Shown: positions 2,942 through 61,691, counted from the first letter of the whole stretch. The stretch: 63,939 nucleotides of DNA, filler included, from Reclinomonas americana ATCC 50394 (GCA_048213135.1; 4 parts of 2 records of this genome joined end to end with filler, not necessarily neighbours in it); one strand, 5' to 3'. Notes: generated by a model not told the origin, from the letters alone. Program-made: numbers and translations.

Positions 2942-5900
2942 ATGAACATGCGTCCGGGTGCCCCTGTGCCTGGCGATGATCGCGACAACGGCAGTCAGGA
3001 AGAACCCGGCGATGATGAGACGAAGCGCCAGGCGTCGACTGCTGCACCACGACCAGTGTCGGATCCCGCGGTTCAGAGGCAGCGAACTGAGCCTGCGCGC
3101 CCACCGCGCCTACCACGCCTACCAAGTGGTGCTTTCTCATTCAGCCAAGCGTCGCCGTCGCCGCTCACCGATCCCATGCCGCCGTCTGCGGTTCCAGAAG
3201 AAGAAGTCGGGGTGCGACCACTGGCATCCATGCTGAGTCCCTCGATGGCGGCTGTGGCCGCAGTCTCCACACCACCACCGCTTCTCCCTCCTCCACCATC
3301 ACTGTTGTCGTCACCTGTCTCCACCGTCAGATCTGGCGACGGCGTTAGCGATCGCCACATGGCACCGACCACCGCCGCGATCAGTGAGCCAGCAGTAGCG
3401 ACAGTAGCAGTGGCGCCAACAGCAACAACAGTCAATGTCGACTGGCACCAGTATGACGACGAGTTGGAGACGCCGTTCGCGGTGGCTGCGGGTGCGCATG
3501 ACCTCCTCCGCCACCACTGCTTGACATTTACGTCAATGCTCACATGTGAACCCGGGATATCCTCGCAGTGGCAGAGTCGGCCGCACCAAGCACCTCACGG
3601 ACCGTGCCTCCAGAGGCGATGCCGTCGGATGTGACGACTTCGGCAAGAGTGGTGGGTGCGCCAGTGACAGGTTGGTGTCCCTCCTCGTGATCAGAAGCTC
3701 TTACTTCTCTGATGATGTAAACGCTACGCACGTACAGAGACTGCACCTCTGCCAAGTGGTCCGGCCGATGAGGTGCAAGCGACAGTGATGCCAGGAGTTT
3801 GTTGCGTTCATTTGTTTGCCTTGCACCTCCCCAACGAATGACCGCCTCACATGAGGAATCTGCGTAGCAGCAGCAGCAGCAGCAGCAGAGGGTGGGAGCG
3901 CGGTGCAGACCACCTCTGTGATGAGGCCGCCACTTGCGCCCCCACTGATCGCATCTGGTGAGGTTGAGCAGTTTTGAAAGAAAAATACTGGAGTGTGTTC
4001 GTTGATGAGTTGTCTACAGTGGTGCGGTCTGTACCGCAACATCCCATGGCGGCTGCCAAACGAGAAATGCCACCAGCGGCACTGTTACGACCCTCGTCTG
4101 AGCCAGTACTCGAGGAAGAAGGTTTGTTCGTTCGGTTTCGGTACTCTTTCCGAACTCTGCCTCGATGACAGCCACTCGCAGCATCCGGAGTCGTGTCGCC
4201 GAGTCCACCAGCCCTGGTGGCCCATGCTGAAAGTGCGTCACCGGATCACTCAGTAGTGTAGTTGGTGCTGTGTGCTGACTGACTCAATGCGCAACGCATG
4301 ACCACAGTGACACACGACACTGTTCCACTGAAACCAGTCGCCATACGTGCTCGTGGTGTAGGCGCTCACGACGGTTTGCAAAGTGTGTGGCATGTGCCTA
4401 TTGGGCGGCAGCTGGGTTACACATTGCGGACTCTGTTGTGTTGCAGGTGCTGACGAGAGCGAGCACGCCATATCGCAGGCGTCGTCGTCACGAGTGCCAC
4501 TCGTGCACTCTGTTCGCACCGCCGCACCGCTGATGGACAAGAGTGCTTGGGCGCGCCATCGAGCCATGTCCATGGTCACTGGGTCGCCATCGTCGCCAGT
4601 GGTACGCAGTACCCTGCAACTGCGCGACCGCGATCTGCATCGACAGGCGTCGGCCGTGGAGGCCGCACTGGCCATGCGCCGTCGCTTCCGCAGTGACATG
4701 GCGTCACCAGTGTCTCTCATGTCACCTGCATTGCAGGCAGCTCCGCCAAGTCCTATCATGAGTCGCGCAGGCTCCTCGGCGATGCCCCCGGGCCCTCGCG
4801 ATCGAGCTTCACCGGCACGCTCGGTGGCCATGTCGCCGCGGGATTTTGGTCATGGCGCCATTCCGGCCAAGTTTCATGAGTTCCGCCAGGCCATCAGTCT
4901 CGAGCTGCGCGAGTTTGACCCCTACATTGTGGCTCGCCAAAAGTCGGTGCAACTCACCGAGGCCGAGCAAGTCAGTCTCGCCAAGTGCGCCGGCATTGTT
5001 GCGTGATTGAAACGTGTTTGGAAACGAACAAGTTGACGGAGACACTCACTGCCCTGCTCACCTCTACACAGCACGAGCATCTAATACCAGTACTAAAAGT
5101 GGCTGAGCAGTACGGTTGTCGAGTGTCACACGATCCGGCGGAAAACATTGTTGCGTTCGTCAGGAGCAGCAGCAATCCATATTCTCGCTGTGATTCACTG
5201 ATGCTGCTGTGCAGGGTCTGGAGAGCGCACGTGCGGCACAGTTGCTGGTGGAGCACGGTCCGAATGTCATCTCACCGCCAAAGAAGATGCATCCATTGTT
5301 GCGTGCGCGCAGCGCGCTGGTTACACACACGCACGCCACTGATTGATGATTCTGCATGCACGCAGCTTGCGCTTTCTGCGCGCATGCTCGGACGTGTTTT
5401 CGCTATTGTTGCTAGCCTGCGCTGTCATCAGCTTTGCTCTCGTGTCATCAAATCCCAAGTTGCTGGACAACGTTGCGTGCAACACAGCAGTGCGCGACCC
5501 TTCCCTTTGTGACTTATGCATTGATACTGTACTGGTGGTGCAGTACATTCTCGGAGCGTTGCTGATCGTCACGGTGCTGCTGAATGGCACCGTGGCGTTT
5601 GTACAGGAACTGCAATCGGAGCGCATCTTCGAGGGCTTTGCTAACATGCTTCCACCAGCCGCCACAGTGATTCGCGATGGGCAACGACGACGCCTGCCAG
5701 CTGCAGATTTGGTGCCGGGCGACGTGGTGGTAATTCGTGCCGGCGACAAGGTTCCGGCCGATCTACGCCTCATCTTCAACAGAGCACTGAAGGCGAGTGC
5801 GCAGCGCACAACGAGACGAGATAGCTCTTCTGTGCTAAATCACTCTCGCAGATGGACCAGTCGTCGCTCACCGGCGAGTCGGAGATGCAGGAAAAATCCA

Positions 5901-60056: not shown

Positions 60057-61691
60057 ATGGCTGACGACAGCAAAGACGTACCACTTTTGCAACGCACAGA
60101 CACTCTGCTCAACATCGGCTGCATCTTTGCCGCCATCCCACTCGGATTCCTCTTCCGCCGTGTCACCGGTGAGTGACTGGAGAGAGAGCACAGCCCCACA
60201 CACACTTTTCTTGTGTATATACGTGTGTAAGAGAGGGGGGTGTTGACTGTGATGTCATCCAGATGTGAAGCTACGATATCGACTGTCGTACGCGGTTGGC
60301 TTGCTCTTCTCCGTGCTGGTCTACAAATGGCACACAATTCAGTACGTGCTAGTCGCTGCTGCTGTGTACGGCGTGTGCGCAGTGTCATCGCTGCGATCGC
60401 GGGCGCACTTGCTGGCGTGGGTCATCACGTTTGGGACGCTGCTTGTTGGGTGAGTTGTTGGACGATTTCTGTGTCAAGAGCGCGTGCTCATCATGTCGAC
60501 CAACGTGAAACAGCAAGTACTACATGATGATGTACCGCTTCCTCGACTGGGCGCTCGATTTCACCGGTCTGTCTTTGTGATGCGTCTCTGTGCTGGTGGT
60601 ATGGTCTCTCAACTCCGCGATGCGTACACAGGACCACTGATGCTAATGGCGCTCCGCATCATTGCCTTTGCGTACAACTATCGTGATGGACTGATGTGCG
60701 ACAAGGAGAAGCCGGCGAGTGATGCCAAGCCTGTTGAGTTCACGCGTGGCGGGATCTCCGTTCGCAGCCTTGTCCATCTGACATGCACCGCGCTGTTGGT
60801 GTCCGTGATGCAGGGTGCTGTTCGCGTGTGGCAACGCCAGCGCGACTATGCGTTGGACAAGCTGCCGTCGTTGGAGGAGTACTTTGGCTACGTGTTCTTC
60901 TTCGGCGCGTATCTGGTGGGGCCCTTCTTCGAGTACCGCGAGTATCGCGAATTCATTGAGGTGCGCTGCGTGCGGTTCTGTGGTGGTGGTGATTCCATGC
61001 ATCTACTGTGGTGCACCACACTCACGTGAGTGCTGCAGTCGAGGGAGCACAAGGTGGCGCCTGGCTGGCACATTGCCAAGATGACGCTGCTGGGCGTGGC
61101 GTTTTTGGTGCCAGCTGGCCTGCACGACTCAATGGCCATGGATTACTTTGGCACGGATGGACTTGCAGAGTTTCTCGCCAAGCCGCTGTACACTCGGTGT
61201 GTTGGGGTGGGGGTTCCCGCGGGAGATGGGTGAACAATGGTGGCACTGGTCTCACGGTTTTTTGGTTTGCAGGATGTTGCTGGTGTATCTCTCGTGTCTG
61301 TTCTTCCGCTCTCGTTTCTATGCCGCGTTGCGTCCGCAACCTATTAGTATCTCGTGCTCCCCTTGCACGCTTCTGATTGATTGTCTGTTTCTTCCAACTC
61401 GTGTAGATGGCCACTCGCTGAAGGTTTCGTCTACACACGCACTTTTTTCTCCATTTTTCATACTCACCAGTGTTTGCTTGTTGGGCAGCCGGCTGCCATG
61501 CTGCTGGATTCGGCACTCGAATTGAGCGATCTGAGGATGGGAAGGAGGTCGTCAAGTACGACCTGTTGCGCAATGTGCGCGCCATTGAGATGGAATTGAG
61601 TCCGTCGACCAAGGACTGTGTGGGTGTCTACTGGAACATTCTCACGGCACGGTTCCTCAAGCAATGTTGCGCGGCCGATGTAGAAGTATGA
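60057..61691 (+). CDS. MBOAT-family lysophospholipid acyltransferase (3' truncated)
   Basis: LDFTGPLMLMALRIIAFAYNYRDG, PSLEEYFGYVFFFGAYLVGPFFEYREY, RFYAAWPLAEAGCHAAGFG, YWNILTARFLKQ. Confidence 0.92.

Follow-up and report, generated by a model that had tools for sequence, protein, structure and literature searches.

A predicted class of 5′ splice sites with one extra T follows exons lacking a terminal G in a 64-kb window of the Reclinomonas americana genome

In a 63,939-nt stretch of DNA, filler included, from Reclinomonas americana ATCC 50394 (GCA_048213135.1; four parts of two records joined, hereafter the window), we found an abundant class of 5′ splice sites that carry one extra T, depend on the last base of the preceding exon and are collinear with the form lacking that T. 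Every junction described below is a prediction or a homology inference, and the scope is this one 64-kb window with our own gene models.

An abundant extra-T donor class tied to the last base of the exon

Introns were predicted using a Viterbi gene finder written for this analysis, from whose information exon position −1 was excluded. The finder was restricted to GT or GC donors and AG acceptors, as was the homology-based aligner. A donor-agnostic pass, in which any GT or GC was permitted as a donor, predicted 158 introns; a learned pass, with a donor mixture trained on positions +1 to +9, predicted 160. Because the learned mixture includes a GTTGCGT component and favours the motif, this second pass is circular with respect to the existence of the class and gives no independent proof of it, but it is non-circular with respect to position −1. 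We defined class A as GTNNGT donors and class B, the extra-T or shifted form, as GTTNNGT donors, and counted both by −1 base among predicted introns of ≤130 nt.

Class B comprised 24 of 158 introns in the donor-agnostic pass and 37 of 160 in the learned pass (15–23%), and the shifted form was present at 35 of the 73 exons without a terminal G. These counts bear out the proposal of an initial annotation of this DNA that extra-T donors constitute a major, rule-like class. Its further claim, that the extra T is tied to exons not ending in G, also held within the window: in the learned pass, G occupied −1 at 62 of 81 GTNNGT donors versus 2 of 37 GTTNNGT donors (Fisher p = 6.4 × 10⁻¹⁴). The same association was obtained in the donor-agnostic pass (39/51 versus 3/24, p = 1.8 × 10⁻⁷) and in Pfam-supported genes only (class A 34/46 versus class B 2/29, p = 1 × 10⁻⁸). 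For the individual motifs, the ratio of G to non-G at −1 was 15/3 for GTGCGT and 1/27 for GTTGCGT, and T at +3 followed 48 of 73 non-G exons versus 13 of 87 G exons. At each of the 20 plus-strand sites quoted in the initial annotation the motif was present, with A, C or T at −1 throughout. All 20 were recovered as donors in the learned pass, and the donor-agnostic pass, with neither a donor motif nor −1 information, placed the exact donor at 13 of them.

Homology at the junctions

We ranked each site by HMM score among all frame-keeping GT/GC–AG alternatives. Five of the 12 class-B junctions scored ranked first; the other seven held ranks 2–18, mostly within ~3 bits and in weakly conserved stretches. 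Spliced alignment fixed the cut at the GT at 5298, 6405 and 27648. Pfam positions run on across the junctions at 5298, 36373 and 37110; those at 14574 and 10712 agree to within one residue. At all of these sites, taking out the intron recovers a conserved reading frame. Below, the donor is GTTGCGT wherever only the preceding base is given.

On the plus strand, a P-type ATPase gene contains six class-B introns. The clearest are 5298..5365 (after T), placed by spliced alignment at rank 1/6 with Pfam position 43 followed by 49 and five residues between them, gapless, and 6405..6470 (t|GTTGAGT), also placed by spliced alignment at rank 1/7 with 16.1 versus 8.5 bits. The 72-nt intron at 5472..5543 (after C), in frame and stop-free, was found in the donor-agnostic pass and ranked 1/8 by 0.4 bits; homology to solved Na,K-ATPase begins exactly at 5544, just after it. 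At 5150..5214 (after T; learned pass), the next exon starts from Cation_ATPase_N position 20 and the HMM rank is 3/17. The intron at 4998..5071 (after T; learned pass) ranked 18/21, without homology at the junction. Near the C-terminus, 9470..9537 (after C; both passes) had a donor rank of 14/20, and its acceptor side fits solved Na,K-ATPases from ORF residue 32.

A UPF0193 gene carries 14325..14393 (after A; learned pass), whose next exon starts from UPF0193 position 54, and the class-B-like 14574..14641 (a|GTTGAGC; both passes), flanked by Pfam positions 115 and 120. In the MOT1 gene, the initial annotation had argued that cutting at the GT is required at 27648..27711 (c|GTTTCGT; both passes); alignment with the MOT1 profile agrees, the split codon C|AA supplying the Gln of RAHRIGQK. 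The remaining MOT1 introns are 22254..22333 (after A; both passes; rank 3/18, weakly conserved region), 24956..25015 (after C; learned pass; rank 1/41), 25368..25442 (after A; learned pass; rank 11/12, ≤0.5 bits from the best) and 25855..25932 (after C; both passes; rank 1/18 by 0.1 bits), together with two absent from the initial list, 22833..22897 (after A; both passes; rank 2/14) and 23322..23403 (after A; learned pass; rank 13/18, without a homology signal).

An Arm-repeat gene offers an internal control, as four phase-1 introns occupy the same place in successive repeats and use mixed donor classes. With GCC or GCG as the split codon, the donors are g|GTATGT and g|GTGAGT, at the class-A introns 36175..36249 and 36902..36980, respectively (learned pass, Pfam positions). 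Where it is ACC or CTG, they are a|GTTGCGT at 36373..36455 (split A|CC) and c|GTTGCGT at 37110..37183 (split C|TG), both found in both passes and placed by Arm positions; the exons around the former end at Arm position 39 and resume at position 3.

Further along the plus strand, the intron at 40638..40700 (a|GTTGAGT; both passes) yields TA|C for Tyr, whereas read-through gives TAG, in keeping with the Tyr that the initial annotation had noted at a ta|gttgagt donor. Other class-B introns lie at 41714..41786 and 42016..42073 (after T; both passes), at 43413..43479 (c|GTTGAGT; learned pass), and, not previously listed, at 34076..34148 (after A; learned pass only) and 43587..43646 (after A; learned pass). 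An MBOAT gene has 61327..61406 (after C; learned pass) and an exception to the −1 rule, g|GTTTCGT at 61424..61488 (learned pass).

On the minus strand, the RED gene contains 54982..55050 (c|GTTTCGT; learned pass), 54814..54892 (after A; both passes) and 54625..54685 (after T; learned pass), the last preceded by an exon carrying RED_N 159–197. A DeSI/PPPDE gene has 52838..52903 (t|GTTACGT; learned pass), with the next exon from Peptidase_C97 position 62. A COMM-domain gene has 31827..31882 (after A; both passes), followed by an exon carrying COMM 29–64, and in its upstream part, in a weakly supported model, an exception, g|GTTGCGT, at 32257..32319 (learned pass). An LSM gene has 19729..19792 (after A) and 19362..19438 (after T), both found in both passes, the latter preceded by an exon carrying LSM 33–65. 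The remaining minus-strand introns are 15404..15469 (after C; both passes); the class-B-like 10638..10712 of an Amt/Rh gene (a|GTTGCGC; both passes), flanked by Ammonium_transp positions 272 and 276; and, in an Amt gene, 1912..1987 (c|GTTTCGT; both passes), 1613..1703 (after T; learned pass), 1531..1592 (t|GTTTCGT; learned pass) and 790..863 (after C; both passes).

Two collinear donor forms and how they may be read

Aligned on TGCGT, both classes form one 8-mer, G-[G/T]-TGCGTG, with the cut displaced by one base. The base-for-base line-up proposed in the initial annotation was thus recovered, class A from −1 to +7 (G G T G N G T G) matching class B from +1 to +8 (G T T G C G T G). Beyond the class-defining positions, class A has G at +3 in 73% and at +7 in 67% of donors, matched in class B by G at +4 in 84% and at +8 in 51%. 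Class A carries G at −1 in 77%, in addition to the +5 G, and the −1 composition of class B is A 32%, C 32%, T 30% and G 5%. Class B is also more uniform than class A: the identical heptamer GTTGCGT occurs in 28 of 37 donors, +5 is C in 92%, and C is favoured over A at the third place of the block (28 GTTGCGT versus 3 GTTGAGT).

All 37 class-B introns have GT at +1/+2 and AG at the 3′ end, a feature partly built into the finder. CTVAY was present within the final 50 nt of 32 of 37 introns in class B, 46 of 81 in class A and 32 of 42 in neither class, at a median distance of ~20 nt from the 3′ end in all three groups. Median lengths were 68 nt in class B and 67 nt in class A, class-B phases were evenly distributed (13/12/12), and GC content was equal to that of class A. 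Class-B introns share the 3′ machinery of the other introns, being alike in CTVAY, length and GC content. We give about an even chance, taken jointly, to these being ordinary U2-type GT–AG introns whose donors are two forms of one signal and to a single-register (shifted or bulged) explanation of both forms.

Under this single-signal explanation, the 8-mer G-[G/U]-UGCGUG would be what is read. In an exon ending in G, that G would serve as its first letter and the cut would fall after it (G|GUGCGU). With an exon ending in A, C or U, the first G would come from the intron, followed by a U to provide the obligatory GU; in the resulting H|GUUGCGU, the UGCGU block would lie one base deeper in the intron, and the cut would fall before the first G. 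The first RNA to dock at the 5′ splice site, which would be U1 and, after the hand-over, probably U6, most likely binds the block in a single register and would require a G two bases upstream of it. The catalytic step would use the available GU, leaving the extra U mismatched or bulged, and the +1 shifted or bulged register of rare human sites would here be a rule. A one-base T indel inside the intron would interconvert the two forms with the mRNA unchanged, so that each intron could track the last base of its exon, which would explain why neither G|GUUGCGU nor H|GUGCGU is common. That the two donor logos are collinear supports one register; the identity of the RNA or protein reader, and the register it uses, we offer as a proposal. 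U6 ACAGA pairing would also need tolerance of a shift or bulge beside the catalytic centre.

Shifted (+1) and bulged U1 registers at human atypical donors were reportedly described by Roca and Krainer in 2009. In humans, the shifted register proper is confined to a few dozen sites, and non-canonical U1 registers have been proven singly, by suppressor U1 experiments. Like the donors described here, human shifted-register donors present GU, one extra nucleotide and then the U1-pairing block, and their canonical pairing is poor; they are cut at the GU with U1 one base out and U6 fixing cleavage, as we propose here. Unlike in humans, one form here makes up 15–23% of predicted introns and about half of non-G exons, its heptamer is near-invariant and near-categorically tied to the last base of the exon, and the predicted shifted duplex with canonical U1 is unfavourable. 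According to Tan et al. (2016, PMC4856993), a site can be marked by U1 outside the canonical register, shifted or bulged, with U6 pairing later setting cleavage, and human non-canonical registers amount to ~1.5–2.1% of donors in all.

For the duplex calculations, we assumed the canonical U1 5′ end for R. americana; a search of the 64-kb window with Rfam returned no snRNA gene, either at the gathering threshold or at E ≤ 1. With this assumed U1, ViennaRNA predicted mean duplex energies of −1.3 kcal/mol for class B versus −6.8 kcal/mol for class A, the shifted class being poorly paired whatever the register. Since the predictions favour C|GUGCGU (−2.2 kcal/mol) over C|GUUGCGU (−0.3 kcal/mol), the rule is unpredicted by U1 affinity alone; this pairing preference runs opposite to the usage of the genome. 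Among the 37 predicted, near-zero-energy class-B duplexes, the +1 G was unpaired in 15; its partner was C9 in 11, U1 position 4 in 8 and C8 in 3. Furthermore, a plain shifted register would lead one to expect a preference for A at −1 from pairing with U1 U10, which class B lacks, and it does not require the depletion of G there (5%); nor would pairing with canonical U1 or U6 account for the preference for C over A at the third place of the block.

A dedicated or altered snRNA, namely a U1 (or U6) complementary to GUUGCGU and present as the sole copy or as a variant beside the canonical one, is a possible but rather unlikely explanation. It would account for class B being far more uniform than class A yet the worst bound by canonical U1, as a tight 7-mer with poor canonical pairing is the expected product of a specific partner. 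However, a perfect partner alone leaves unexplained both the avoidance of G at −1 and the collinearity with a one-base displacement of the cut. To our knowledge, the U1 5′ end is nearly invariant in eukaryotes, including GC-rich ones with GTGCGT-type donors, and we count this against an altered snRNA. Equally tentative is the broader idea that a two-register 5′ splice-site code is normal in the major spliceosome of this lineage, with a second U1/U6, or an altered single one, having GUUGCGU as its cognate, the last base of the exon dictating the donor form, and about half of non-G exons depending on the shifted form.

Compensation between exon and intron with no register shift appears improbable. 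Here, sites lacking G at −1 would need a strong intronic half to offset poor contact with U5 loop 1 or U1 C9, and in this lineage +3 U followed by GCGU would be strongest for U6 or for a protein such as U1C, LUC7 or Prp8. The strong association of −1 with +3 in the window speaks for this reading, and the split by presence of the consensus G at the exon end resembles that between AG//GUNNN (U5 loop 1) and NN//GURAG (U6 ACAGA), the main classes into which 5′ splice sites have been divided (PMC11732430); related work concerns the two classes, seesaw linkage and left- and right-handed LUC7 sites (PMC9803359, PMC11842720, PMC10581693). Those classes share a single register and differ in which half matches, with exonic and intronic consensus anticorrelated. 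In the window, −1 is likewise linked to the intron, but the whole GCGU(G) block is displaced by exactly one base. Class A, moreover, has G at −1 as well as at +5, so the halves are not traded off, and the exclusion is near-categorical (GTTGCGT after G in 1 of 28), beyond a tendency.

The relation between the two forms has a counterpart in C. elegans unc-73(e936), whose −1 cryptic site is reportedly of the /GUU form: a G|GU with a +1 G-to-U change is spliced one base upstream at |GUU, which is the relation between classes A and B. That event is mutant, out-of-frame, inefficient and limited to a single gene, whereas the introns in the window are native and in frame and form a standing class. PMC6140464 describes the +1 G-to-U mutation together with its cryptic sites. 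We found no published description of a donor class such as this one.

The motif in raw sequence and what the pattern would mean

GTTGCGT occurs 43 times on both strands of the window, a number reached in none of 100 dinucleotide-preserving shuffles (mean 15.33, sd 4.23, largest 26); its sister heptamers GTAGCGT, GTCGCGT and GTGGCGT have 2, 12 and 28 copies. Inside 13 gene spans set by Pfam matches alone, sense and antisense copies numbered 20 and 2 (binomial p = 1.2 × 10⁻⁴), and G precedes 2 of the 43 copies at a G frequency of 0.293 (p = 6 × 10⁻⁵). It is very unlikely that the class is an artefact in which the motif is enriched for some other cause and the gene models misplace donors on it. 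Fifteen of the 43 heptamers are unused as donors by the gene model, and the learned donor model favours the motif; however, the strand bias and the −1 G depletion are visible in raw sequence without a model, the class was already at 24 of 158 introns in the donor-agnostic pass, and several junctions are fixed to the base by homology.

We give next to no credence to introners, a reading in which the heptamer would mark a family of recently inserted mobile introns that supply the 5′ end themselves and favour particular bases at the target. Four sites, 4998, 5150, 5298 and 42016, have the exon context cattGTTGCGT in common, and GTTGCGTGATTGA is common to two introns, but an all-versus-all blastn of the 160 introns, with the donor heptamer and last 3 nt removed, returned matches of 12–24 nt only; these cross classes as often as they fall within class B and were judged to be simple repeats, not each being checked. 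Class-B intron sequences otherwise differ, and some share an Arm-repeat position with class-A introns. U12-type introns, with a /RTATCCTT donor and a TCCTTAAC-like branch site, are likewise a second donor class with a long near-invariant 5′ motif, but this identity was rejected, given the GTTGCGT donor here and a CTVAY branch region like that of the other introns.

A standing, near-invariant donor class shifted by one base would make this genome a natural experiment. It could reveal how U1 passes the 5′ splice site on to U6 and U5, what sets the cleavage position and why G at −1 matters, and the pattern could shed light on how the reading register of the splicing machinery is set. In such a genome, gene finders that use a single weight matrix will misplace about a fifth of introns. 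If a variant snRNA proved to be involved, it would constitute a second recognition code within the major spliceosome.

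The extra-T heptamer and its genomic setting

The initial annotation had listed 20 plus-strand donors carrying an extra T (GTTGCGT, GTTGAG or GTTTCGT), and all 20 hold the motif at the position claimed, preceded by A, C or T. Counted on both strands, GTTGCGT occurs 43 times, compared with 15.33 ± 4.23 copies in dinucleotide-preserving shuffles, none of which reached 43 in 100 trials (largest, 26); the variants with A, C or G as third letter have 2, 12 and 28 copies, respectively. Sense copies outnumbered antisense copies 20:2 inside 13 gene spans defined by Pfam only (p = 1.2 × 10⁻⁴), and G preceded 2 of the 43 copies versus an expected 29% (p = 6 × 10⁻⁵). 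The copy excess, the sense-strand bias and the depletion of G at −1, the last base of the exon, are independent of any gene model. These counts confirm the observation, which is stronger than had been put initially.

The 63,939-base window has a G+C content of ~55–60% and contains several N runs. Three of these are identical N44-TTAATTAATTAA-N44 blocks (28468–28567, 32572–32671 and 61692–61791) that resemble six-frame-stop contig linkers; the window is therefore probably a pseudo-scaffold, and the segments flanking these blocks are not necessarily genomic neighbours. A gene map was built by scanning open frames and predicted exons with Pfam. Pfam places a Na,K-type P-type ATPase, UPF0193, deoxyhypusine synthase (DHS), MOT1/BTAF1, HAUS4, an Arm-repeat gene, RPA3, DLIC and MBOAT on the plus strand, and two ammonium-transporter/Rh-type genes, an LSM gene, a COMM-domain gene, RED and a PPPDE/DeSI peptidase, and a kinase on the minus strand. 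Exons are short; spliced alignment confirmed 24 introns, with lengths of 57–102 nt. No snRNA gene was detected in the window at Rfam gathering scores, nor at E ≤ 1, where all matches were chance-level ones to miRNAs and sRNAs.

Several features of the map stand apart from the donor question. The ATPase carries a ~155-aa N-terminal extension (4533–4997, plus strand) that shows no homology to the family profile and precedes its Cation_ATPase_N domain; an ATPase exon matches bacterial P-type ATPases at 45–59% identity. The best relatives of the DHS exon show ≤75% identity, the named ones being from animals, chytrids, Mucoromycota and Asteraceae, and metagenome contigs yielded DHS-related loci, all at ≤70% identity. 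An 831-aa open exon without a Pfam family (43904–46396, plus strand) ends a gene model of many short exons and had no relative among metagenome contigs; the MOT1 N-terminal ORF had no match among longer proteins. On the minus strand, the gene finder merged RED (RED_N, RED_C), the downstream PPPDE/DeSI gene (Peptidase_C97) and a PUL-like stretch into one model (51214–55440), whose boundaries are predicted.

Donor calls and junction homology

Donors were called by two self-written programs. A spliced aligner of profile to genome required AG at the acceptor and GT or GC at the donor, with no further splice signal, and was run with profiles of 60 P-type ATPases and of 30 of 47 MOT1 homologues. A Viterbi gene finder combined codon usage, an acceptor matrix and an intron-length prior, and was run in two passes: a donor-agnostic pass accepting any GT as donor with GC penalised, and a learned pass with a three-component donor mixture fitted by EM on positions +1 to +9 only. 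The splice models of both passes ignore every exon position. Hereafter, introns are named by the window coordinate of the donor's first base, and a slash marks the cut.

The ATPase profile recovered the introns at 5298 (t/GTTGCGT) and 6405 (t/GTTGAGT). Cutting at the GT of the extra-T form had been held necessary on two examples, the conserved IGQK of MOT1 and a Tyr in place of a stop, and both cases stand: spliced alignment recovered the MOT1 intron at 27648 (c/GTTTCGT), whose split codon C/AA encodes the Gln of the conserved RAHRIGQK, and at 40638 the split codon TA/C gives Tyr, where read-through gives TAG. The aligner also placed a GC-AG intron, aag/GCGAGT, in the ATPase (5793–5851, plus strand), ranking first among 10 frame-keeping alternatives; two further GC donors were predicted by the gene finder in RED (55268 and 54339, minus strand).

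The donor-agnostic pass called the exact donor at 13 of the 20 sites. GTTGCGT emerged unsupervised as one of the three donor components under EM, and the learned pass, which is circular as evidence for the existence of the class, placed donors at all 20 sites and added four plus-strand donors (22833, 23322, 34076 and 43587) and a further 13 minus-strand ones.

Junctions in the ATPase and MOT1 were then scored with all GT/GC-AG pairs lying within 30 nt that kept both outer frames open, each joined peptide being compared with the family HMM; alternatives at 27648 were left out. The predicted junction was top-ranked in 5 of the 12 extra-T junctions scored: 5298 (1 of 6), 5472 (1 of 8, by a margin of 0.4 bits), 6405 (1 of 7), 24956 (1 of 41) and 25855 (1 of 18, by 0.1 bits). 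The remaining seven (4998, 5150, 9470, 22254, 22833, 23322 and 25368) ranked 2 to 18, in low-homology stretches with gaps mostly below 3 bits; the scoring leaves these undecided and does not contradict them. Pfam positions on the flanking exons continue gap-free across 5298; at 14574 and 10712 they agree to within one residue, and at 36373 and 37110 they keep to the Arm-repeat period. The match to solved Na,K-ATPases begins precisely at the first codon past the 5472 intron. Solved-structure searches backed the acceptors of both 5472 and 9470, gave no support for their donor positions, and returned no match for the ORF at 8882–9508.

Donor form and the last base of the exon

We next divided predicted introns of ≤130 nt into two mutually exclusive classes, with donors reading GTNNGT (class A) or GTTNNGT (class B). 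In the donor-agnostic pass, 39 of 51 class-A donors followed G, versus 3 of 24 class-B donors (Fisher p = 1.8 × 10⁻⁷); the corresponding figures were 62/81 and 2/37 in the learned pass (p = 6.4 × 10⁻¹⁴) and 34/46 and 2/29 in Pfam-supported genes only (p = 1 × 10⁻⁸). The two commonest donor words form a near-diagonal table, with G/non-G counts at −1 of 15/3 for GTGCGT and 1/27 for GTTGCGT. That exons ending in G mostly avoid the extra-T form, as had been proposed, is borne out, since class B follows just 2 of 87 such exons. The two exceptions are g/GTTTCGT at 61424 and g/GTTGCGT at 32319, the latter in a weakly supported gene model. The 73 non-G exons were followed by class B in 35 cases, class A in 19 and other donors in 19, many of these last being near-variants such as GTTGCGC, GTTGAGC and GTTACGC. 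T at +3 was found after 48 of the 73 non-G exons versus 13 of the 87 G exons; the base after GTT was mostly T after G exons (GTTTG in 6/13) and G after non-G exons (37/48). In the DHS coding region, both predicted donors, at 18082 and 18615 on the plus strand, read G/GTTTGCG (atg/GTTTGCGAT and aag/GTTTGCGTG), which may represent a third spacing of the TGCG block.

Nine of the 19 class-A donors after non-G exons are GTGTGT repeats and may be false calls. Many introns contain GT/CA or GA microsatellites, for example at 14325–14393, 19362–19438 and 32257–32319. GTGTGT accounts for 24 of the 81 class-A donors, and GTGTGTGTG-type "donors" in the gene models are partly false calls on microsatellites, as where 6299 was predicted instead of the homology-backed 6293 (tag/GTAAGT).

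An Arm-repeat gene (35955–37183, plus strand) with about one repeat per exon provides an internal control. Four phase-1 introns in this gene occupy equivalent sites in consecutive repeats, each following Arm position 39–40. Two of them, with split codons GCC or GCG, have g/GTATGT (36175) and g/GTGAGT (36902), and two, with split codons ACC or CTG, have a/GTTGCGT (36373) and c/GTTGCGT (37110). At equivalent Arm positions, donor form thus tracks the last base of the exon, an illustration from four introns.

Apart from the donor, the two classes have similar median lengths (68 nt in class B versus 67 nt in class A). Class-B introns show phases of 13/12/12, have the same type of acceptor as other introns and, in 32 of 37 cases, carry CTVAY ~20 nt upstream of the 3′ end. 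They form no sequence family, and an introner origin was rejected. Pairing of the heptamer with a complement inside its own intron was not convincing, GCAAC occurring in 5 of 37 class-B versus 6 of 81 class-A introns.

A proposed single docking register and its relation to known donors

The class-A logo reads G(77%)/GTG(73%)NGTG(67%), and that of class B reads H/GTTG(84%)C(92%)GTG(51%), H being A, C or T. Aligned on TGCGT, the two are one 8-mer with G or T in second place and the cut displaced by one base, which upholds the suggestion that they line up base for base. Neither the G before the defining GT nor the G after it entered into the class definitions, and both therefore support a single register independently. 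GTTGCGT makes up 28 of the 37 class-B donors, a far greater uniformity than in class A.

Most likely, the recognising RNA would dock in a single register on the UGCGU block common to both classes, requiring a G two bases upstream, and catalysis would then use the GU. A G-ending exon would supply this G (G/GU-GCGU), and after a non-G exon the intron would have to provide G and then U (H/GU-U-GCGU), with the U mismatched or bulged.

Energetics are the weak point of this single-register proposal. With ViennaRNA and a canonical U1 5′ end, assumed for R. americana, duplex energies were −7.1 kcal/mol for aaG/GUGCGU, −2.2 for aaC/GUGCGU, −0.3 for aaC/GUUGCGU and −4.1 for aaG/GUUGCGU, and class A averaged −6.8 kcal/mol and class B −1.3. 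Canonical U1 affinity therefore fails to explain the preference of non-G exons for the extra T, the avoidance of G at −1, or the choice of C over A in the block (28 GTTGCGT versus 3 GTTGAGT). A more specific factor must also play a part, which could be a second or altered snRNA, a C9:G pair that U1 proteins demand, or an effect of U6, U5 or Prp8.

The single-register proposal matches human atypical donors, at which U1 can bind in a shifted or bulged register and only marks the site, with U6 pairing later setting cleavage (PMC4856993). This human register is the closest case and has the same geometry as class B; unlike class B, it is rare and heterogeneous, shifted or bulged registers comprising ~1.5–2.1% of human donors according to PMC4856993. 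Class-B introns do not fit the U12 type. One cryptic site in C. elegans unc-73(e936) sits one base upstream. In this allele, a +1 G to U change activates cryptic sites, as PMC6140464 describes.

We found no description of the GTTGCGT donor form in open-access literature, and motif matches were to primers, aptamers and unrelated papers. As only open-access text was covered, this is weak evidence that the class-B form had no earlier description.

The −1 tables from predicted introns support, within the window, the initial annotation's claim of a major, rule-like donor class, at junctions that are predicted or homology-based. Insertion or deletion of an intronic T would switch one donor form to the other with the mRNA untouched, which we infer would be a simple route for introns to settle on the form suited to their exon.
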